64,000 nt of DNA from Syntrophorhabdaceae bacterium (GCA_963665295.1 OY762209.1:4416001-4480000), one strand, 5' to 3'. Shown: positions 10,511 through 26,753, counted from the first letter of the stretch. The notes: generated by a model from the letters alone, not told the origin. Translations and numbers: made by a program.

Positions 10511-11059
10511 TCAGTCCGCCTTCAGGATAACCGTTTCATTAAATGCCCTTGTATAGGCATTAATATTCTTCTGAGCGTTTATCCCGAACCTGTTTTTCAC
10601 AGGCTCCTCAAGAGATTCGAGAGGTACCACTCCGGTGGCCTTTACGAGGGCTCCCAGCATAGTGGTATTTGTTATCGGCACCCCAAGCTCTTCCTTGGCG
10701 ATCTTTGTCCCATCCACATAGGCAATATTATGCCCCGGAAACAGCATCATGAGATCTTCAACGGGCTTGTGGGTATTTATGATGACGAATCCGTCTTTCA
10801 AACCTTCCGTGGGGTTAACGGTCCCCAGCAGCGTTGCATCCAGGATGATCACCGCGTCAGGCTTATAGACTTTCGACCTCAGCCTTATCGGTTTATCCGA
10901 CACTCTTAAAAAGGCAAGGACAGGCGCCCCTCTTCTTTCCGGGCCAAAACTCGGGAATGCCTGGGCATATCTGCCTTTCGCGATGGCTGCCTGGGCTATT
11001 ATTTCTGCCGAGGTTACAGCTCCCTGGCCGCCTCTTCCGTGAAATCTCACCTCTATCAT
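10511..11059 (-). CDS. Pyruvate/2-oxoacid:ferredoxin oxidoreductase gamma subunit
   Basis: MIEVRFHGRGGQGAVT...FGPERRGAP, NTTMLGA. ATGA overlap with the cysS stop. Confidence 0.92.
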   Translation of the reverse strand: MIEVRFHGRGGQGAVTSAEIIAQAAIAKGRYAQAFPSFGPERRGAPVLAFLRVSDKPIRLRSKVYKPDAVIILDATLLGTVNPTEGLKDGFVIINTHKPVEDLMMLFPGHNIAYVDGTKIAKEELGVPITNTTMLGALVKATGVVPLESLEEPVKNRFGINAQKNINAYTRAFNETVILKAD

Positions 11060-12519
11060 CTGTCCTCTCCTTTCGTCGTAACTCCACTTTTTATTCTCCA
11101 CTCGGTGCCCTTGGGCGAATCCTGCAAAAGGATTCCTTTCTGAGCGAGAGTATCTCTTATTTCATCCGACTTCTTGTAGTCCTTGTTCTTCCGGGCCTGC
11201 ACCCTTTCTTCGATCATACCCTCAATGGAGGCGGCATCCAGCCCCATACGACTCAGGTGCCTCGTTCTTTCCTTTTCCGAGAACGCGTCCACGTCGTCAA
11301 GCAAAAGACCTATGCCCTGCGCGAGGGTGACAAGAACGTCCCTGGCATAGAGAATGCGTGGGACCCTGCTCTCGTCATGCTCGTCCACCATCCGGTTTAC
11401 CATTTTCGACAGCTCAAAGACCGAACTGAGGGCAAGGGCTGTGTTGAAATCATCATCCATGGCCTCGTAGAACTTCTCCTCCAGTTCACGAGCTGCTCGA
11501 AAAGGCGCCGCTGATGCCTCTTTCCCTTTTCCTGCTTCCCGGGCTCTTTCCAGGGTATAATAGAGTCTCTGGAGCGCGTTATTCGTATCCTCTATCGATT
11601 TATCGGTATAATCAACAGGATTCCTGTAATGAGTCGATAGGAAGAAAAGTCTCAGGACCTCGGGATGATACTCCTTCATGAAGTCCTTTATGAGAAGAAA
11701 ATTGCCGAGAGACTTTGACATCTTTTCCTTCTCGATGTTCACGAATCCGTTGTGGACCCAGTAATTCACGAATCGAACGCCCGTGGCCGCCTCGCTCTGG
11801 GCGCGCTCGTTTTCATGGTGCGGGAAGACAAGGTCTTTCCCTCCCCCGTGTATGTCAAAGGGGGAGCCGAGGTATTTCGTGCTCATCACGGAGCACTCTA
11901 TATGCCATCCCGGTCTGCCTTTACCGAACGACGTCTCCCAGTACGGCTCACCCTCTTTCGAACCCTTCCACAGGGCAAAATCGAGGGGGTTCCTCTTCCT
12001 GTCATCCACATCGACCCGCGCCCCCGCCATCATCTCATCGAGACTCCGGTTGGACAGCCTGCCGTAACCGACAAAGCTTTCTACGGAAAAGTAGACATCG
12101 TCATCAACCCTGTATGCGTGTCCCTTGTCAAGGAGAGTTTCCACGAGACGTATCATATCATCGATATGTTCCGTGGCCCTCGGCTCATAGGTGGGAGTGA
12201 GGATGTTCAAGGCCCCCATATCTTCCTTAAAAGACCTGATATACTTCTCCCCTACTTCCTTCCACGGGACGCCTTCCGTATTCGCCTTCTTCAGTATCTT
12301 ATCGTCGATATCGGTGAAGTTCTTCACGAAGACGACGTCAAGACCTTTCGCCTTGAGATACCGGTAAATCACGTCGAATACGATGGCGCTCCTCGCGTGA
12401 CCGATATGACAATGGTCATAAACGGTTACACCGCATACATAGAGTTTTGCCCTGCCTTCCTCGACGGGTTTGAATTCTTCCTTGTTTCCAGTGAATGTGT
12501 TGTATATTTTTATAGACAT
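11056..12519 (-). CDS. cysS: Cysteinyl-tRNA synthetase
   Basis: CGVTVYDHCHIGH, GRPGWHIEC, FPHHENE, KMSKS. Confidence 0.98.
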   Translation of the reverse strand: MSIKIYNTFTGNKEEFKPVEEGRAKLYVCGVTVYDHCHIGHARSAIVFDVIYRYLKAKGLDVVFVKNFTDIDDKILKKANTEGVPWKEVGEKYIRSFKEDMGALNILTPTYEPRATEHIDDMIRLVETLLDKGHAYRVDDDVYFSVESFVGYGRLSNRSLDEMMAGARVDVDDRKRNPLDFALWKGSKEGEPYWETSFGKGRPGWHIECSVMSTKYLGSPFDIHGGGKDLVFPHHENERAQSEAATGVRFVNYWVHNGFVNIEKEKMSKSLGNFLLIKDFMKEYHPEVLRLFFLSTHYRNPVDYTDKSIEDTNNALQRLYYTLERAREAGKGKEASAAPFRAARELEEKFYEAMDDDFNTALALSSVFELSKMVNRMVDEHDESRVPRILYARDVLVTLAQGIGLLLDDVDAFSEKERTRHLSRMGLDAASIEGMIEERVQARKNKDYKKSDEIRDTLAQKGILLQDSPKGTEWRIKSGVTTKGEDR

Positions 12520-12592
12520 ATGTTGCTATTTTTATCACAACGTGCGCCCCCTTGTCAAAACTTATCTGAGCCTCGGGGCCGGCCTTTTGGAA

Positions 12593-12622
12593 TTGACAAG
12601 GGTCACCTCCTTGAATTATTAT
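12593..12622 (+). promoter_or_regulatory. Putative sigma-70 promoter of the metal-uptake operon
   Basis: TTGACA-N18-TATTAT. Confidence 0.55.
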
Positions 12623-12648
12623 TTGCCCATGAGATCGGAAGGACGCTC

Positions 12649-12963
12649 ATGAGTCTCGTGAGAAGGGAAGCGCACTCCCCTTCGTATGCCGGACGCAGAT
12701 CAACCGCCGGGAAGGTCCTGGCGGTTCTCTTTTGCGTTTGTCTTCTCCTTTCCCTCGGGATGGGCTTTCACCACCATACGGACGGGCTTGAACACCCCGA
12801 TTGCCCAACCTGTGCACTTTCGTCCCTACCGGTAATCGGATCGGCATCCTGCGATTCAGCGCCTTTTTTTGTGGACATCGTGTTTTTGGCGCCCCTCCGG
12901 GATTTCCGTCCTCTTTGTTCTTCCCTCGATTCCACTCATGCCATAAGGGCGCCTCCCGCCTGA
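12649..12963 (+). CDS. DUF2946/CruR-like leader peptide (TM/signal, HHH, CxxC, C-terminal RAPP), 104 aa
   Basis: MSLVRR...VLAVLFCVCLLLSLGMGFHHHTDGLEHPDCPTC...HAIRAPPA*; GGAAGGA before ATG 12649. It is the 3' end of the long shadow ORF 11752..12963. Confidence 0.8.
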   Translation: MSLVRREAHSPSYAGRRSTAGKVLAVLFCVCLLLSLGMGFHHHTDGLEHPDCPTCALSSLPVIGSASCDSAPFFVDIVFLAPLRDFRPLCSSLDSTHAIRAPPA

Positions 12964-13058
12964 CATTCTTCACCCGCACCACAAATCCATAATAAAAGAT
13001 TCCCAACGGAGGAGTATCACCACCGTACGCTCCGCCCTGAATTCGCGAGGAGGCACCA

Positions 13059-14411
13059 ATGCATAAGACGCTTGTCTTTGCCCTTCTCTTCGCGTGTCTC
13101 GGTTATTCAAGTTCATTTGCAGGTAATCTTGAATCGAGGCTGAACGCGATGGAGGAGACCTTAAGGAAGCAACAGGAGACAATCAACGAGCAGCGCAAAA
13201 TGATCGAGGAATTGAAAGGCGAATTGGCAACAGTAAAGAAGCAGGAGACCGCCCCCGCGGTTGCCGATATACCTCCGGGGACCGCGGGTGAGCCGAAGAT
13301 GTCCGGCATATCCGGTCTTTTCGGCGGCGCATGGATGACCAATCCGTATATTTCCTTTGTGTTGAACACCAATTTCTACTCCTCCAGCATCAATGAAAGG
13401 GAACTATCCAACAGGGGAATCCCCGGTTACTCAAACCTGGGTTTCGAGCAGAAGAAAGGGTTCAATATCAGCGAGGGTGAATTATTCCTTTTCGCTCCCG
13501 TGGATCCCTATTTTAATCTCTATGCCAATATACCCTTTACGGAAAGCGGCAGTTCCCTTGAAGAGGCATACTTTATTACCACCTCCCTCCCCGAGGGTTT
13601 GCAGGTAAAGGGAGGTAAATTCAAGAGCAACTTCAGTCGTTTCAATGCGCAGCACCCCCACGCATGGGATTTCGCCGACGCTCCTCTGTCGTACCGGGCC
13701 TTCCTCGGCAACGAAGGTCTCATCGAGAAGGGGGTACAGTTGACCTATCTCCCGGCTCTGCCCTTCTACACTCTCCTCGGAGTGGAAGTGCTCCAGGGGG
13801 AAAACGAAGTCATGTTCAACCAGAACGCCACAGGAGGTCCTCACGCCTTCACCGGGTATTTGAAACAATCCGTTGATCTGGGTGACTATTCCACCCTGCT
13901 TTTCGGCCCCTATGCCGTAGGCGGCCAAACGCGCACCACCACCGTTGCGAACGGTACCTTTCTGATGGGCAATACGCAACTCTATGGGTTTGAAACCGTC
14001 TTCAAATGGAAACCCTCGAAATACAGAAGCCTTATTGTCCAGGGAGAGTACATGATACGCAATCAGGACGGCACCCTTTACGATGCCTCGCCAAACACCG
14101 CCTCCAGTCTTAAGAGGTCCCAGGACGGCGCATACATTCAGGCCCTTTATCAGATCGACAGGTGGAGGTTCGGCGCGCGATACGATCGCCTCGGTCTGTT
14201 CAGGACCGATTACACGCTTGCGGGCGTGGAGCAGAGCTTCGGGCAGGACCCGTGGCGGGCCACTGCCGCAGTCGAGCTGAACCTGAGCGAGTTCTCCCGC
14301 CTGAGGCTTCAGTACAACTACGATCGGTCGGGCGGAGACGGACGGACAAACAACGAGGTCTTTTTGCAGCTTATTCTGGGCATCGGCGCACACGCCGCCC
14401 ATTCATTCTAA
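13059..14411 (+). CDS. Outer-membrane beta-barrel protein of metal (Zn/Mn-type) uptake operons
   Basis: Signal peptide, coiled coil, amphipathic strands, NAQHPHAW, C-terminal GAHAAHSF; lies upstream of a cluster A-I binding protein. Confidence 0.75.
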   Translation: MHKTLVFALLFACLGYSSSFAGNLESRLNAMEETLRKQQETINEQRKMIEELKGELATVKKQETAPAVADIPPGTAGEPKMSGISGLFGGAWMTNPYISFVLNTNFYSSSINERELSNRGIPGYSNLGFEQKKGFNISEGELFLFAPVDPYFNLYANIPFTESGSSLEEAYFITTSLPEGLQVKGGKFKSNFSRFNAQHPHAWDFADAPLSYRAFLGNEGLIEKGVQLTYLPALPFYTLLGVEVLQGENEVMFNQNATGGPHAFTGYLKQSVDLGDYSTLLFGPYAVGGQTRTTTVANGTFLMGNTQLYGFETVFKWKPSKYRSLIVQGEYMIRNQDGTLYDASPNTASSLKRSQDGAYIQALYQIDRWRFGARYDRLGLFRTDYTLAGVEQSFGQDPWRATAAVELNLSEFSRLRLQYNYDRSGGDGRTNNEVFLQLILGIGAHAAHSF

Positions 14412-14423
14412 GGAGACGTCACA

Positions 14424-15308
14424 ATGAAGAAACCAACCATACTGATCTTTCTCATCACATTCCTTTTTGCCTGGCCCGCCTTTGCCGAACTGAACGTGGT
14501 GACCACCCTTCCATGGATAGGGAGTATCGTGAACGATCTGGGCCGGGACAAGGTGAAGGTGACGGTCCTGGTCAAGCCGAGCCAGGATCCCCACATGATC
14601 GAAGCGAAACCGAGCATGATCCTTGCGGCGAGAAGGGCCGATCTCATTATGTACAACGGCCTCGACCTTGAAATAGGCTATCTTCCTATCCTTATCGAGT
14701 CATCACGGAATCCGAAGATTCAGCCGGGCAGGCCGGGTAATTTCGATTGTTCCCGTTTTGTGGCGGCCATCGAGAAGCCCCTCGCCGCCGACAGAAGCCT
14801 GGGGGACGTCCATCCCCTGGGCAACCCCCACTATCATCTTTCGCCCGGGAATATGCGTAATATTGCGGAAGGCATTTCCCGGACCCTGTCCCAATTGGAC
14901 CCCGGAAACGCATCTTTCTACCAGGAAAACGCGTCCGGCTTCCGGAAGAAGCTCGACGAGAGAAGGAAGGAGTGGGGAACAGCGCAATTGCGGGGGAAGA
15001 AATTTGTCAGCTACCACAAGTATTTCGAATACCTTGCACAGGAATACGGGTTCCAGCTTGTGGGATACATCGAAGCCAAGCCGGGTATCCCGCCGTCTCC
15101 CGGCCATATCGAAAGTCTCATTGAACTCGCGAAGGGAACAAAACTGGACGGCATACTTACCACCGCATATTTTCCACGGACAGCTCCCGATTTTCTTGCC
15201 CGAAAAACGGGCCTCAAGGTAATTGTCATTCCCCATGAAGTGGGTGCCACGCCTCAGGCAACGGACTGGTTCAAACTCATGGACCTTGTATTCGCCTCAT
15301 TATCGTAA
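14424..15308 (+). CDS. Metal ABC substrate-binding protein (ZnuA/TroA family)
   Basis: QDPH, YNGLDLE, GDVHPLGNPHY, YH. Confidence 0.92.
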   Translation: MKKPTILIFLITFLFAWPAFAELNVVTTLPWIGSIVNDLGRDKVKVTVLVKPSQDPHMIEAKPSMILAARRADLIMYNGLDLEIGYLPILIESSRNPKIQPGRPGNFDCSRFVAAIEKPLAADRSLGDVHPLGNPHYHLSPGNMRNIAEGISRTLSQLDPGNASFYQENASGFRKKLDERRKEWGTAQLRGKKFVSYHKYFEYLAQEYGFQLVGYIEAKPGIPPSPGHIESLIELAKGTKLDGILTTAYFPRTAPDFLARKTGLKVIVIPHEVGATPQATDWFKLMDLVFASLS

Positions 15309-15319
15309 GGAGACAATGA

Positions 15320-16117
15320 ATGGAAGCGCTACAGTTGCTTATGTATCCCTTTCTCGCCTGCCTCTGCCTGATCCTGATCCACGCCTATTTCGGTATTCAT
15401 GTTCTCGAACGGGGGATCATTTTCGTGGACCTTTCCCTCGCGCAATTCACGGGCCTCGGCATCGCGTGTGCCCTCTATGCCGGGGCCGGCTCGCACGGCC
15501 AGTACCTCTACTCCGCCGCCTTTGCCGTAATGGGCGCCCTTCTCCTTTCTTTCTCCCGCCGCATATCCCGGTTCGTCAATATAGAGGCCTTTATCGGTGT
15601 GCTCTACATCTTCGGTCTCTCCGCGAGCGTCCTCATACTCGACCGCACGCCTCACGGCCTCGAGGAATTGAAGTCCATCTTCAACGGCAACATACTCTGG
15701 GTAAGCGGAGGGGATGTGCTGAAGGCATTCTTTCTTTATGCAGTAATAGGGGCCTTCCATTTCATTTTCAGAAGACGTTTCTTTGCCCTCACAAGGAACG
15801 GGGAACAGTCCGTGCTATGGGAGTTTCTTTTCTTTCTCAGTTTTGCTCTCGTCCTTGTAAGCTCGGTGAAACTTGCAGGGATACTCCAAGTCTTTGCCTT
15901 CCTCGTTATTCCCGCTCTGATAGGAAGGCTTTTCGGCAACGCTCCCGGTAAGGTCCTCATTGGAGGCTGGCTCATCGGAGTCGGGGCAAGCATTTTCGGT
16001 CTTGCAGTCTCTTATCGCCTGGACCTGCCCGCCGCTCCCCTGATTGTTGCCTCCCTCTGTCTGGCCTTCTTCTCTCTTCTGGGAGCAAAGGCGCTCCTTG
16101 CAGGGAAGTCATCATGA
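15320..16117 (+). CDS. Metal ABC permease (ZnuB/ABC-3 family)
   Basis: GIHVLERGIIFVDLSLAQ, FNGNIL, FLVIPA; multiple TM helices. Confidence 0.88.
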   Translation: MEALQLLMYPFLACLCLILIHAYFGIHVLERGIIFVDLSLAQFTGLGIACALYAGAGSHGQYLYSAAFAVMGALLLSFSRRISRFVNIEAFIGVLYIFGLSASVLILDRTPHGLEELKSIFNGNILWVSGGDVLKAFFLYAVIGAFHFIFRRRFFALTRNGEQSVLWEFLFFLSFALVLVSSVKLAGILQVFAFLVIPALIGRLFGNAPGKVLIGGWLIGVGASIFGLAVSYRLDLPAAPLIVASLCLAFFSLLGAKALLAGKSS

Positions 16118-16159
16118 CGCCCTTGGCCACCCCTGGTTCCGTTTCCTCCGGGCCCCTTT

Positions 16160-16849
16160 CTACACCATGAGGTACTTCTTCTTCACATCCTCGTTGGCTT
16201 CAAGCTCGGCAACGGTCCCCTCGAAGCGGATGATCCCCTCGTCGATGACGTAGGCCCTGTCGATCATCCTCAAGGCGGATCTCACGTTCTGCTCGGAGAG
16301 GAGGATGCTGATCCCCGCGTCTTTGAGCTTTACGATCTGCTCCTCCAGGTCCCGGACAATAAGGGGAGCGAGCCCTTCGGTAGGCTCATCGAGGAGAAGG
16401 AGGTCGGGGCTGCTCATGAGGGCCCGGCCTATGGTGAGCATCTGCTGCTCCCCTCCGGAGAGGTTCCCTGCGCGTCTGGTCTTGATGTCGGCGAGAGGGG
16501 GGAATACCTGGTAGACCCGTTCCTTGGTCCACTGGTCGGTCCTTTTGAAGGCGATCTCCAGGTTGTCGTCCACGGAGAGGTCGGCGAATACCCTGCGGTC
16601 ATCGGGCACATACCCCATGCCCGCCCGTACGAGGAGGAAGGGTTTGCGGTGGGTGATATCCTCGTTCTTGAAGGTGATGGTCCCCTCTTTCGGAGGGGTG
16701 AGGCCCATGATACTCCTCATGGTGGTGCTCTTCCCTGCGCCGTTCCTCCCTAAGAGCCCCACTACCTCTCCTTTGGAGACCCTGAGGCTTACATCGAAGA
16801 GTATGTGGCTTAGACCGTAATAGGTGTGAATACTGTTTACATTAAGCAT
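16160..16849 (-). CDS. livF: Liv-type ABC ATPase
   Basis: GRNGAGKS, LSGGEQQ, LLDEPTEGLAP, EQN. Confidence 0.92.
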   Translation of the reverse strand: MLNVNSIHTYYGLSHILFDVSLRVSKGEVVGLLGRNGAGKSTTMRSIMGLTPPKEGTITFKNEDITHRKPFLLVRAGMGYVPDDRRVFADLSVDDNLEIAFKRTDQWTKERVYQVFPPLADIKTRRAGNLSGGEQQMLTIGRALMSSPDLLLLDEPTEGLAPLIVRDLEEQIVKLKDAGISILLSEQNVRSALRMIDRAYVIDEGIIRFEGTVAELEANEDVKKKYLMV

Positions 16850-21748: not shown

Positions 21749-23050
21749 ATGAGTAAAGACTACCATCTCCGCATGGGTCCCGCGGAACAAGAGTACTTCG
21801 CCCTGCCAAAGAAATGGAGTCCTTTGCCTTTTTCTGATATCCGAAGCGACTCACCGAAGCCCTCGGTAGGGCAGATGACCCGCGACGCCCTCTCGAGACC
21901 CGCAAAGACGGCCCCTCTTAAGGATTTGGTTGCCGATGCGAAGAAGATCGCCATTATAATCGACGACTGTACCCGCCCCACGCCTGTCTCCGGTATCCTT
22001 GAGGTGCTGCTTCCCTATCTGGAGGACAACGGTCACAATCGCGCGGACATCACCATCGTGGTTGCCCTCGGCACTCACGCTCCGGTGCCGGCGGAGGATC
22101 TTAAGGTCCGGGTGGGAAGCGATGTGGTGGCCGGTTATCGCATCGTACAGCATAACTCCCGCCAAGTGGACCTTACACCCGTCCTCCTACCCGACAACGG
22201 TATGGTGGTGGGGATAAACCCCGAGGTAGCAGGGGCCGACGCAAAAATTGGGATAAGTTCGATTTTGCCCCACCCCATGGCGGGGTACGGGGGCGGACCA
22301 AAGATCGTGATGCCCGGGGTATCGGACTTTGAGTTTATCCGTGCCCACCATATGAAGCAAACCATAGCCCCCGGATCGTATGCGGGGAACACGACAGGAA
22401 ACCCTTTTCACGAAGGGTGTTTGAAAGTAGCCCGCGCAGTAGGACTCGATTTTTCCATAAACTGCGTGTATAACCGACAGGGGGAGATTGTCCGCATCCT
22501 GGGTGGCGGACTTGACGCTGCTTTCGGAGCGGCGGTGGATGTGTGTCTGGAGGAACTGGGGATAAGATTTGAGGAAAAGGTCGATATAACGATTGCATCA
22601 ACCTACCCTCATACGCACGCCCATCAGTTTATCAAGGGTCTGAACGCCGCCGACGTGGTTACCAGGGAAGATGGTGCCATCTTGCTCGCCGTGCCCACCC
22701 TGACACGGCTGCCCGGTGATTTTCTCAACTCCTTCAACCTGGTAAGAGAAAGGTCTCACAATAAGCCTGTCGTTTATATGAAAGAGGCTATGTCTCGCGG
22801 GATGCCCTTCCTGCCGGAAAAACCTCTGGAGTTCAATATGGCCATGAAATGCGCGGTTATCAGGCCGGGAATACGGACCATACTTGTATCGCCCATGATT
22901 TCCGAGACTGAAGCCCGTACCATGGGGTTCGAGTACGCCCCTTCCGTTTCCGCGGGAGTGGACATGCTCGAAGCTTCATACCCCGAAGCGCGGGTTGCAA
23001 TATTTCCTTCAGGAGGACTCATCGTCCCCATAACCGCCTGGGAAAGATGA
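21749..23050 (+). CDS. larA: Nickel-pincer-dependent lactate racemase family protein (LarA-like)
   Basis: IDDCTRPTP, ALGTH, HPMAGYGGGPKIVMPG, H, NPFH. Confidence 0.88.
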   Translation: MSKDYHLRMGPAEQEYFALPKKWSPLPFSDIRSDSPKPSVGQMTRDALSRPAKTAPLKDLVADAKKIAIIIDDCTRPTPVSGILEVLLPYLEDNGHNRADITIVVALGTHAPVPAEDLKVRVGSDVVAGYRIVQHNSRQVDLTPVLLPDNGMVVGINPEVAGADAKIGISSILPHPMAGYGGGPKIVMPGVSDFEFIRAHHMKQTIAPGSYAGNTTGNPFHEGCLKVARAVGLDFSINCVYNRQGEIVRILGGGLDAAFGAAVDVCLEELGIRFEEKVDITIASTYPHTHAHQFIKGLNAADVVTREDGAILLAVPTLTRLPGDFLNSFNLVRERSHNKPVVYMKEAMSRGMPFLPEKPLEFNMAMKCAVIRPGIRTILVSPMISETEARTMGFEYAPSVSAGVDMLEASYPEARVAIFPSGGLIVPITAWER

Positions 23051-24414: not shown

Positions 24415-25323
24415 ATGAATAATGTTTCCCGCCGCGACTTTTTGAAGTATTGCGGGTTAGGGGCCGCGGCCCTGGGTCTTAGCATGTCGGATCTGGGACG
24501 CCTTGAAAAGGCCTTTGCAAACCCGACCGGCCCATCGGTGATCTGGCTCCAGGGAACCGGCTGCACCGGATGTTCGGAATCCTTTCTCAACAGGATCTCG
24601 ACTTCCAGCCCCAAGACCGCGGCCGCCGTTCTCGTCGACTCCATCAACCTCGTCTATCACCCTAACCTCATGGGCCCCGCGGGCCAGGAAGCGGTGGCCG
24701 AAGCGGAGGCCGCTTACAACAAAGGAGGGTATGTACTCGCAGTCGAAGGAGGGATTCCCACGGCCTTTGGCGGAGCCGCGTGCATGGCGTGGACATACAA
24801 CAACGTTGAGGTTACTTTCGAACACGCGGTGCGTGACCTTGCGGACCGTGCCGCGGCGATCCTTTGTATTGGAACGTGCGCGTCTTTCGGCGGCATTCCC
24901 GCCGCGCCGCCCAACCCGGCAGGCGTCATGGGAGTCGGGGAACTCACGGGAAGACCTACCATCAATATTGCGGGGTGCCCGACACACCCCGATTGGATCG
25001 TGTGGGCCGTGGTGCAGCTTATACTCGGCAATCCGATCCCCCTTGATTCATCCGGACGCCCCACTCAGTTCTTCAGCAACACGGTGCACAGCCAGTGTCC
25101 GCGCTACGGGACGGAAAAAGCGGAGACTTTCGGAGAGGACTACCACTGTCTCATGGATCTCGGGTGCCGCGGACCCCGGACCATGTCGAACTGCCCCCAG
25201 CAAAGGTGGAATAATCAGGCCAACTGGTGCGTTGACGCCAATGGGCCATGCATAGGGTGTACCGAGCCGACATACCCCGGTACTCAGTCATTCTATACCC
25301 AGGAAGGCAAAGGAGGTACGTAA
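24415..25323 (+). CDS. [NiFe]-hydrogenase small subunit, Tat-exported
   Basis: SRRDFLK Tat motif; CTGC, GTCA, GCP, HSQC...CL..LGC, C...WC...CIGC; no C-terminal anchor. Confidence 0.95.
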   Translation: MNNVSRRDFLKYCGLGAAALGLSMSDLGRLEKAFANPTGPSVIWLQGTGCTGCSESFLNRISTSSPKTAAAVLVDSINLVYHPNLMGPAGQEAVAEAEAAYNKGGYVLAVEGGIPTAFGGAACMAWTYNNVEVTFEHAVRDLADRAAAILCIGTCASFGGIPAAPPNPAGVMGVGELTGRPTINIAGCPTHPDWIVWAVVQLILGNPIPLDSSGRPTQFFSNTVHSQCPRYGTEKAETFGEDYHCLMDLGCRGPRTMSNCPQQRWNNQANWCVDANGPCIGCTEPTYPGTQSFYTQEGKGGT

Positions 25324-26753
25324 TGTCAACAGTCAAGATAGTAGACCCTGTCACACGCCTGGAAGGTCATCTTAAAATAGAGGTCACCATAGACACGGTC
25401 AACAGTACGCAGCAAGTCGTTGATGCACGGGCCACGGGCACCATGTTCCGCGGGTTCGAGCAGATCCTTGTGGGCAGAGCGCCCCAGGATGCTCAGCATA
25501 TCACCCAGAGAATCTGCGGCGTCTGCCCCGTTCCCCACGGCATTGCATCCGTACTTGCCCAGGACAAAGCATTCAAGGTCACTCCTCCCGCCAATGCGAT
25601 CGTTATGCGCAATCTGGTCCTCGGCGCGAATTTTATCCAGTCCCATATACTCCACTTCTATCACCTTGCCCTTCAGGATTATGTGGACGGACCAGCCATG
25701 CCGCCGTGGCAGCCTTCATGGAATGTGGACAAACGCATCAGCGGCACCGGCGCCACAAGCCTGGTGAACAATTACGTGGCGGCCCTCGACATGACAAGGA
25801 AAGCTCACGAGATGGGCGCCCTTTTCGGAGGACGCATGCCCGATCCCGTGGCGTACGTCGCGGGAGGCTTTACTGCAACCCCAAGGCCGGACCGCATTTT
25901 GAAATATCAGTCATACCTGGCCGAATTAATCCCTTTCATCAGGAACACCTATCTTCCCGATGTGACCGGCTTGAGCCAGGCATATCCGGATTATTCGAGT
26001 ATCGGCACCGGATACGGAAACCTTCTTTCTTTTGGGGTCTTCGATCTCGATGCGGCGGGGGCGAACAAGCTCCTGAAGCGCGGGAGATCAGCAGGCGGAT
26101 CGCAGACGGTAAGCTCGGTTGATGTGAATCAGATATCGGAAGCGATCAATCATTCCTGGTATAAGGATTCGTCTTCCAGCCGGAAACCTTCGGCAGGCCA
26201 GACGAATCCCAGTTACCCCAAGACAGGGGCCTATTCATGGCTCAAAGCGCCCCGTTATGGCGGAAAACCCTATGAGGCGGGGCCTCTCGCGCGAATGTGG
26301 GTAAACGGGGATTACCGCCGTGGTATCTCCGTCATGGACCGACATCTGGCCAGGGCCCAGGAGGCTCTAAAAATAGCCGGCGCCCTTCAATCGTGGGTGA
26401 CGCAGCTGCAACCCGGAGGCCCTGTCTATACCGCCCATACACCGGCCGCCACCGCGACCTCGTACGGACTTACCGAAGCGCCTCGGGGCGCGCTGGGACA
26501 CTGGCTCCAGATTGCCGCTGGCAAGATTTCACGTTATCAGATCATTACACCCACATGTTGGAACGCCTCCCCCAGGGACGGCTCAAATAAACCGGGGCCG
26601 ATAGAAAAGGCGCTCGTGGGCACTCCCGTAATCAGCATCGACGAACCCGTTGAAGTTTTGAGGATTATCCATTCCTTCGACCCCTGCCTTTCCTGCGCGG
26701 TCCATGTATCGAGACCCAAAGAAAATGCAAAGGTTCACGTTGTCTACACATAG
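25323..26753 (+). CDS. [NiFe]-hydrogenase large subunit (group 1a-like)
   Basis: DPVTRLEGH, L1 QRICGVCPVPH, EAPRGALGH, L2 FDPCLSCAVH plus a cleavable tail. Starts at the TAATG overlap. Confidence 0.95.
   Translation: MSTVKIVDPVTRLEGHLKIEVTIDTVNSTQQVVDARATGTMFRGFEQILVGRAPQDAQHITQRICGVCPVPHGIASVLAQDKAFKVTPPANAIVMRNLVLGANFIQSHILHFYHLALQDYVDGPAMPPWQPSWNVDKRISGTGATSLVNNYVAALDMTRKAHEMGALFGGRMPDPVAYVAGGFTATPRPDRILKYQSYLAELIPFIRNTYLPDVTGLSQAYPDYSSIGTGYGNLLSFGVFDLDAAGANKLLKRGRSAGGSQTVSSVDVNQISEAINHSWYKDSSSSRKPSAGQTNPSYPKTGAYSWLKAPRYGGKPYEAGPLARMWVNGDYRRGISVMDRHLARAQEALKIAGALQSWVTQLQPGGPVYTAHTPAATATSYGLTEAPRGALGHWLQIAAGKISRYQIITPTCWNASPRDGSNKPGPIEKALVGTPVISIDEPVEVLRIIHSFDPCLSCAVHVSRPKENAKVHVVYT

Follow-up and report, generated by a model that had tools for sequence, protein, structure and literature searches.

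What is the role of a short reading frame that ends in the codons of a ribosome-arrest motif and stands at the head of genes for metal uptake? The locus that raises this question belongs to a Syntrophorhabdaceae bacterium (GCA_963665295.1), and the window analyzed here is a stretch of 64,000 nucleotides of its genome (OY762209.1:4416001-4480000), numbered from its first letter. An earlier note on this DNA had seen in the reading frame a hidden metal-sensing arrest peptide. We consider it probable, from sequence comparisons, that the ORF, 104 codons long, serves as regulatory leader (uORF) to an uptake operon of the porin-znuA-znuB type and that its product belongs to the metal-sensing arrest peptides of the CruR/CutF class.

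This class of leaders is itself known (PMC9426467; PMC9973294; bioRxiv 10.1101/2025.02.05.636593; PMC12992588). CruR (Bp2923) from Bordetella pertussis, the prototype of Pfam DUF2946 (PF11162), has a spacing of 45 residues between CxxC and RAPP with a tolerance of one or two residues, and mutations show that all of its features but the signal matter for the copper control of bfrG (PMC9426467). In the PURE system CruR arrests ribosomes, the P and A sites being occupied by its two Pro codons (Fujiwara et al., PMC12992588). Arrest at RAPP together with control by copper has been reported for CruR (PMC9426467; PMC12992588) as well as for CutF (bioRxiv 10.1101/2025.02.05.636593), and sensing of metals other than copper by CutF-like peptides is already in print, some of them having been suggested as Ni or Co sensors (PMC9973294).

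Results

A 104-Codon Reading Frame Concealed by the Antisense of cysS

The reading frame begins with ATG at 12649 and ends with TGA at 12961-12963, and its translation reads MSLVRREAHSPSYAGRRSTAGKVLAVLFCVCLLLSLGMGFHHHTDGLEHPDCPTCALSS...THAIRAPPA followed by the stop (Table 1). A basic N-terminus with five basic residues (R5, R6, R16, R17, K22) precedes, on inspection, a single hydrophobic stretch of 18 residues, after which come FHHHTDGLEHPDCPTC, 44 residues without an obvious motif and the ending RAPPA-stop, so that the hydrophobic segment, the His/Cys motif and the terminal RAPPA described at the outset are all found in the translation of 12649-12963. By inspection, the basic N-terminus and the hydrophobic segment form a putative export signal or N-in anchor. 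Upstream of its ATG the frame remains free of stops through the antisense of cysS (11056-12519, minus strand; PF01406), and therefore a mechanical ORF list shows a 403-aa ORF at 11752-12963 that hides the short gene, just as the claim of a leader masked inside an antisense shadow ORF had it. The leader ORF itself lies wholly outside cysS, the end of which is at 12519. A terminator-like hairpin at 12702-12736 of the window (11 pairs, 7 of them G-C), followed by CTCTTTTGCG, is situated within the coding region of the leader and shows no clear conservation in the same-genus relative.

Table 1. Features of the leader and of the operon behind it, in window coordinates.
Feature	Coordinates	Strand	Basis
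Promoter-like site TTGACA-18 nt-TATTAT, 27 nt upstream of leader ATG	12593..12622	+	11/12 consensus matches; consensus match only
Leader SD-like GGAAGGA, 5 nt before ATG	12637..12643	+	Read from sequence
Leader ORF, 104 aa, CruR/CutF-like (DUF2946-like) candidate peptide	12649..12963	+	Homologues, alignment, spacing, profile comparison
Hydrophobic segment, residues 23-40, VLAVLFCVCLLLSLGMGF	12715..12768	+	Read from translation; hydrophobic block kept in 31/31 aligned sequences
Putative metal-binding motif HHHTDGLEHPDCPTC, H41-C55	12769..12813	+	H41, H43, H49, C52, C55 invariant; H42, D45 in at least 90% of 31 sequences
RAPP codons AGG GCG CCT CCC, R100-P103; expected stall site (P102 in P site, P103 in A site)	12946..12957	+	R100, P102, P103 invariant; register from the CruR toeprint in PMC12992588
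Putative anti-Shine-Dalgarno GCGCCUCCCGC, A-P-P-A codons	12949-12959	+	Predicted pairing with porin SD
Intergenic region, 95 nt, C-rich, G-poor (35% C, 18% G)	12964..13058	+	Composition
GCGAGGAGGC, including the porin gene's Shine-Dalgarno; 5 nt to ATG	13045..13054	+	Predicted RAPP-codon partner, MFE and centroid
Outer-membrane porin-fold protein, 450 aa, signal peptide, N-terminal coiled coil	13059..14411	+	AlphaFold2, Foldseek
ZnuA-family periplasmic metal-binding protein, 294 aa, all-His site	14424..15308	+	PF01297 at 2e-49
ABC-3 (ZnuB-type) permease, 265 aa	15320..16117	+	PF00950 at 2e-23

The promoter-like site ahead of the leader is the only sigma-70-like site within 12400-16300 (shuffled sequences contain 2.5 on average), its TTGACAA is kept in the same-genus relative, and by this consensus match the leader is the first cistron behind it. 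A perfect inverted repeat of 10 nt, CCCTTGTCAA at 12549-12558 and TTGACAAGGG at 12593-12602 with 34 nt between its arms, overlaps the -35 hexamer with its right arm and may represent an operator or else a mirror image of the -35 in the divergent cysS promoter. Up to three mismatches to a 19-nt Fur box consensus were allowed in a search of the whole window, which gave no match with this enterobacterial consensus, a weak test as the motif of the host may differ, and no gene for a Fur-family (Zur-type) repressor is seen beside the porin-ZnuA-ABC-3 operon.

The Leader Is Conserved

A word-index search with the single leader sequence gave no match, so that an exhaustive search was needed for finding its homologues. 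Phmmer comparison with 1.84 billion (1.84e9) representative proteins yielded 31 proteins at E<=0.001, four of which reach E<=1e-10. Thirty of them were aligned with the window protein (alignment A1, 31 rows), P0007 being left out because, with 1085 aa and seven matched stretches, it is not leader-sized. Identity of the members to the window leader amounts to 24-45%, and yet H41, H43, H49, C52, C55, R100, P102 and P103 are invariant in all 31 rows, with H42, D45 and A101 kept in at least 90% of them. A profile made from A1 finds 39 more proteins in a collection of 5.8 billion, none of which has a precomputed Pfam domain, and it matches 31 of 401 genomes, or 24 of 254 genera, sampled across the phylum.

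The genome of the window contains a second match to this profile, a leader of 92 aa (...CLHHHNDGDSAHTDCALC...SRAPPHRII) encoded at L026:9264-9542 on the minus strand (G000:C1:3277269-3277541). It heads a gene for a ZnuA with a His-rich loop, followed by genes for an ArsP_1 permease (PF03773) and a TIGR03943/DUF1980 subunit.

The distance between the two conserved blocks is nearly constant. Among 62 parsed sequences, a tally in which the window leader is counted twice (as P0001 and W) and from which five unparsable sequences are missing, 60 have 43-46 residues between CxxC and RxPP, as 44 (27 sequences, the value of the window leader), 45 (25), 46 (5) or 43 (3); one further sequence has 48, and one value is a parsing artefact. 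The tail after RxPP comprises 1-9 residues in 61 of the 62. One locus, L080 (G262:C155:10900-17110), retains an intact HHHxD..H..CxxC block without an RxPP ending and without transporter genes behind it, and may represent a decayed leader.

A functionless ORF that arose by chance in the shadow of cysS would account for the embedding in a 403-aa mechanical ORF and for the absence of the exact protein from the 5.8-billion-protein collection. Against this stand the homologues with invariant motifs in 24 of 254 sampled genera, the leader's own SD and promoter-like site, and its position outside cysS. As the leader is conserved, the chance explanation is refuted, and we give it practically no weight; judged by its conservation, the leader is a real, apparently unannotated gene encoding a selected peptide.

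Relation to DUF2946

A search with the DUF2946 HMM had been proposed as a check, and its outcome is divided. The window leader gives no match to PF11162 at E<=1, and none appears at the leader locus when all six frames of the genome are searched at E<=10, so that formally the leader is not a member of DUF2946. Its relatives do approach the family, since 20 of the 31 aligned proteins match PF11162 at E<=1, with a best value of 4.2e-4, all below the gathering threshold of 23.7 bits. The second leader of the genome scores 16.2 bits, and a phylum-wide search with PF11162 places sub-threshold matches (17.9-21.5 bits; profile positions 51/53-117) exactly on five leader loci. Among ESM Atlas clusters, the nearest ones bear the name DUF2946 or have PF11162 in 44% of their members.

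Profile-profile comparison points in the same direction. Hhalign of A1 with A3, a small DUF2946-scoring family (7 of 7 members match PF11162 at E<=0.1, best 2e-5), gives a probability of 93.1% and E 3.1e-7 over 64 columns, with the His block/CxxC and RAPP in register, but this alignment is short and driven by the motifs and may reflect convergence. The spacing in the leader family equals that reported for DUF2946/CruR (43-46 in 60 of 62, versus 45 in CruR), which bears out the description of the ORF as CruR-like in having CxxC plus RAPP. Taken together, the comparisons suggest that the leader family is probably a true relative of DUF2946 that branches just outside the Pfam threshold. The earlier idea of a sensor analogous to CruR thus holds for its predictions at the sequence level, whereas "merely analogous" seems too weak a term.

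Genes Behind the Leader

As had been stated, genes for an outer-membrane barrel, a ZnuA-like protein and a ZnuB-like protein follow directly upon the leader (Table 1). No ATPase gene comes after ABC-3; the next gene (16160-16849, minus strand) encodes a convergent ABC ATPase beside a Peripla_BP_6 binding-protein gene. Three further ABC-3 genes are present elsewhere in the genome.

The porin matches no Pfam or NCBIfam family, and comparison of its sequence with solved structures gave only a chance match (E 0.5), so that a fold search was needed. The AlphaFold2 model, built with 24 homologues (mean pLDDT 81.4), displays a signal helix, a coiled coil at residues 24-62, a linker that is disordered, and a beta-barrel, and Foldseek relates it to VhChiP, MOMP, OmpT, OprP and DcaP, general as well as specific porins, at E values from 8e-12 to 9e-10. 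Exact look-up finds the porin, with its chosen start codon, absent from the protein collection, and the ZnuA-like protein as an entry without a name, both of which are uninformative. Across 24 sequences of the porin family, H199, H201 and H445 are invariant and H448 is kept in at least 90%, and there is a DcaP-like N-terminal coiled coil. The porin may be a metal-selective, TonB-independent channel.

Synteny was assessed at 36 loci, i.e., 28 phylum profile hits, six relatives reached via the porin and the second copy of the own genome (6-7 kb around each), together with the window. In 27 of the 36 the leader is succeeded by a ZnuA-family gene, as it is in 19 of 28 if only loci found via the leader alone are considered; together with one RND system, this makes 28 of 36 loci with metal-transport genes downstream. 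In 23 loci the leader and ZnuA are separated by a porin-like gene. Eight loci include an ABC ATPase gene, and 14 lack it and have ABC-3 immediately after ZnuA; these 14 are the window (14424-16117), L057, L085, L061, L063, L065, L067, L068, L070, L071, L086, L073, L076 and L078. Loci without ZnuA are L060 and L074, which have only the porin-like gene, L066, L069, for which there is no clear assignment, L080 (the copy lacking RAPP) and L081-L084, where the hit is weak or the contig breaks off. The RND locus, L066 (G237:C76:16800-23600), has a leader (...FHHHPDGLTHDECSLC...RAPPTF) that heads an efflux operon (HlyD_D23, ACR_tran, OEP) instead of an importer.

Approached from the porin, the synteny check suggested in the earlier note likewise turned out well, as six of eight full-length porin homologues (L002, L003, L005, L006, L007, L008; not L004 and L013) have the RAPP leader directly upstream. 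L013 is a porin paralogue of the own genome (L027:4772-6190, minus strand; 54% identical) that has no leader upstream and is followed by a gene for a Fur-family regulator (L027:4245-4736, minus strand), for which NCBIfam gives Fur, PerR and Zur as best matches, each below its cut-off. This arrangement suggests that the second porin is under transcriptional rather than translational control.

The leader product might instead be a small periplasmic metal-binding protein that is stable and anchored in the membrane, assisting porin/ZnuA as a chaperone or accessory, and in which RAPP has no regulatory part. An anchor and a metal motif that are both conserved, taken as always standing in an operon with transport genes, would suit such a protein, but conservation is confined to the motif and RxPP, and the spacer of 44-45 residues is variable in sequence and fixed in length. 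RAPP/RGPP is moreover reported to be underrepresented in proteomes and overrepresented close to the C-termini of small uORF products that are exported (PMC12992588), and the mature forms of CruR and CutF are described as undetectable (PMC9426467; PMC9973294). We therefore regard a stable accessory protein as improbable.

More improbable still is a monitor of secretion or membrane insertion of the SecM/ApdA type, in which the pulling force of the translocon releases the arrest independently of any metal. ApdA and ApdP have an N-terminal hydrophobic segment and a C-terminal RAPP, which is the layout of the leader. This ApdA/ApdP-type arrest class is described in PMC12992588. A gene for a Sec component or YidC is, however, found downstream in none of 30 loci scanned on the same strand (95 proteins; window and second copy were scanned separately), nor is there one in the window, and the invariant His/Cys motif would be left without a role.

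Zinc as the Likeliest Metal

In all of the 27 ZnuA-like proteins, H57, H130, H136 and H198 are invariant, and three of them, H57, H136 and H198, fall on the DPH, DPH and H positions in ZnuA from Synechocystis (2ov1), which we take to be its three zinc ligands. Relatives of ZnuA of the Mn/Fe type carry Glu at the third ligand position. The best NCBIfam match of the window's ZnuA-like protein is AztC (9e-30, below cut-off), and the best matches overall are AztC/AdcA zinc types, also below cut-off. Four loci, among them the second leader copy of the own genome, encode a ZnuA with a long His-rich loop. Since the ZnuA-family neighbors (27 of 36 loci) always have the four invariant His, zinc is the likeliest metal and, by these comparisons, the best supported one for leader and operon.

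The earlier suggestion of Zn, Ni or Co can accordingly be narrowed, with zinc favored by the ZnuA-type genes downstream and nickel losing ground. Nickel enzymes are indeed encoded nearby, namely a LarA-like protein (Lar_N; 21749-23050) and the small and large subunits of a NiFe hydrogenase (24415-26753), but they lie outside the operon. A link to nickel through these genes was rejected, as they form separate transcription units behind a convergent amino-acid ABC operon.

The same leader mechanism could serve another metal, copper or else Ni, Co, Fe or Mn, which the operon would then import. CxxC is a classic site for Cu(I). By analogy copper is the main alternative, as both characterized relatives, CruR and CutF, respond to copper via a Cys motif (PMC9426467; bioRxiv 10.1101/2025.02.05.636593), and the circumstance that all characterized relatives of the leader sense copper, not zinc, counts against a zinc leader. 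Further points in favor of another metal are the proposed CutF-like Ni or Co sensors (PMC9973294), the nickel enzymes 9-12 kb away, and the best solved match of the ZnuA-like protein, 6ru4/6r3z, which is named only "adhesion protein". We take 6ru4/6r3z to be an Fe(II)-binding FpvC. On the other side are the ZnuA-family genes in 27 of 36 loci with His as third ligand in 27 of 27, the His-rich loops and the AztC/AdcA matches mentioned above and, with regard to copper, the fact that PCuAC, YcnI, CopC and PepSY, typical of cruR operons, are found in none of the 95 scanned downstream proteins. A metal other than zinc is thus unlikely, if still worth keeping in mind.

Predicted RNA Pairing and a Possible Involvement of Rho

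When the region 12925-13075 is folded in silico, GCGCCUCCCGC pairs with GCGAGGAGGC, in the MFE structure as well as in the centroid. According to the partition function, 9.2 base pairs are expected between RAPP codons and porin SD, compared with 2.3 after shuffling of the upstream part (2 of 30 shuffles are as high), although the 151-nt fold as a whole is no more stable than its shuffles (z -0.89). Among 30 loci, pairing of RAPP codons with the next SD reaches at least 3 bp in 15, and the stall zone is the main partner of the SD in 14. The same-genus relative L085 has the codons CCA CCC and no such pairing, whereas at L066 the RAPP codons are predicted to pair with the next SD through 8.8 expected base pairs (0 of 30 shuffles as high). 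At 18 of 34 loci the first Pro codon of RAPP reads CCU, where neighboring genes would lead one to expect 7.2; the binomial p of 4e-5 overstates independence, since the counts of codons and of pairing come from related genomes. A universal masking of the SD by the RAPP codons was considered and downgraded, since 14-15 of 30 loci conform to it and the closest relative does not.

In 29 of 30 loci the final ~190 nt of the leader contain more C than G, but this is so in the intergenic regions of only 16 of 30 and in the next gene of 13 of 30; the window leader has 35% C and 21% G in this part, and rho is encoded in the genome. The richness in C may simply follow from the content of Pro, Ala, Ser, Leu and His of the peptide. 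Masking of the SD and Rho may both act on the operon.

Discussion

The comparisons lead us to regard the leader as a zinc-linked, sub-threshold branch of the CruR/CutF class of arrest peptides, an assignment made at the level of sequence, and by analogy it is probably a translational metal switch. From conservation, geometry, synteny and the zinc-type neighbors, which are observed, we infer arrest, metal sensing, sign of control and RNA mechanism as follows. Transcription would start from the promoter-like site at 12593-12622, and the leader would be translated first. The ribosome would arrest with Pro102 in the P site and Pro103 in the A site (codons 12952-12957), at which moment HHHxDxxxHxxCxxC, 44 residues behind, should be just out of the exit tunnel. 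Such a ribosome would cover GCGCCUCCCGC and leave the SD of the porin gene free, following the logic of SecM and CutF, and it might also keep the C-rich leader RNA from Rho, so that the operon is expressed. Plentiful metal, most likely Zn2+, would bind to the His/Cys motif of the nascent chain, and folding or pulling force induced by the metal would release the arrest and let the ribosome terminate, whereupon the anti-SD:SD helix could form and/or Rho could terminate transcription, and uptake would be switched off. A stall that means ON and a metal that means release would be the coherent sign for an uptake operon. The leader of L066 heads an efflux operon and would therefore need the opposite sign, which is the same contrast as that between CruR and CutF (bioRxiv 10.1101/2025.02.05.636593).

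A bolder version of this proposal, which we put forward tentatively and with rather more doubt than confidence, is that of a natural zinc-sensing nascent peptide, whose membrane-tethered His3/Cys2 mini-domain binds Zn2+ while leaving the ribosome, exactly 44-45 residues from the peptidyl-transferase center, and thereby releases the RAPP arrest, with CCU CCC serving as anti-Shine-Dalgarno of the next gene. It would be the first translational, Zur-independent zinc switch of bacteria and would govern an outer-membrane zinc porin, His-lined, TonB-independent and so far without a name, together with an ABC-type importer that has no ATPase gene of its own.

Roy et al. point out in their discussion (PMC9426467) that riboswitches for Cu or Zn are not known. 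In a supplementary table of PMC12992588, RAPP uORFs are listed without comment upstream of genes named "zinc-regulated ... receptor"; one "zinc-regulated" entry in its supplementary file 8 is too short for a TonB-dependent transporter and near the size of the porin family. Neither "zinc" nor "ZnuA" appears in the main text of PMC9426467, PMC9973294 or PMC12992588, or in the supplements of PMC9426467, and literature searches turned up no study that connects RAPP/DUF2946 leaders with ZnuA or the uptake of zinc; the supplements of PMC9973294 (File S1) and part of those of PMC12992588 may list such neighbors.

Copper sensing at the post-transcriptional level by nascent leader peptides was described only in 2022-2025, and a ZnuA-linked branch would extend the principle to zinc; if true, zinc homeostasis would gain a second layer beside Zur. 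With ~100 codons, a fixed ruler of 44-45 residues and synonymous changes that separate effects of peptide and RNA, the leader would offer a simple experimental system, which could show how binding of a metal outside the tunnel releases an arrest inside. The finding also draws attention to an unannotated leader gene and to an uncharacterized porin family with invariant histidines.

In comparison with known systems, the likeness to CruR is close. Both are small first-cistron ORFs with an N-terminal export signal, putative in the case of the leader, an invariant CxxC and a RAPP a few residues from the C-terminus, in both, CxxC and RAPP are 44-45 residues apart, the intergenic region is long and the leader RNA has more C than G, and both stand at the head of an outer-membrane uptake system whose metal should turn it off. 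The window leader differs from CruR in lacking a match to PF11162 and in the additional invariant HHHxDxxxH block of its family, and it precedes a TonB-independent porin with ZnuA/ABC-3, whereas CruR precedes a TonB-dependent transporter with PepSY. The metal of CruR is copper and that of the leader likely zinc, and pairing of stall codons with the SD, as predicted for the window, does not form part of the CruR model.

CutF from Rhodobacter capsulatus and the CutF-like proteins (PMC9973294; bioRxiv 10.1101/2025.02.05.636593) are similarly DUF2946-like exported peptides with a Cys/His site and a C-terminal proline motif, and the stalled ribosome melts a stem-loop that conceals the ribosome-binding site belonging to the next gene. 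RND efflux is the commonest class of neighbors of CutF-like proteins, and L066 of the leader family also heads an RND efflux operon. In contrast to what an uptake operon needs, metal induces stalling on CutF and turns the detoxifying enzyme ON, a process that requires EF-P. SecM, ApdA and ApdP (RAPP or RAGP) share with the leader the C-terminal R-A-P-P arrest core, the exported nascent chain and control of the next gene via mRNA structure, but they have no metal motif and monitor the Sec/YidC machinery, whereas the genes downstream of the window leader include none for protein localization and code for a porin and parts of a putative zinc importer.
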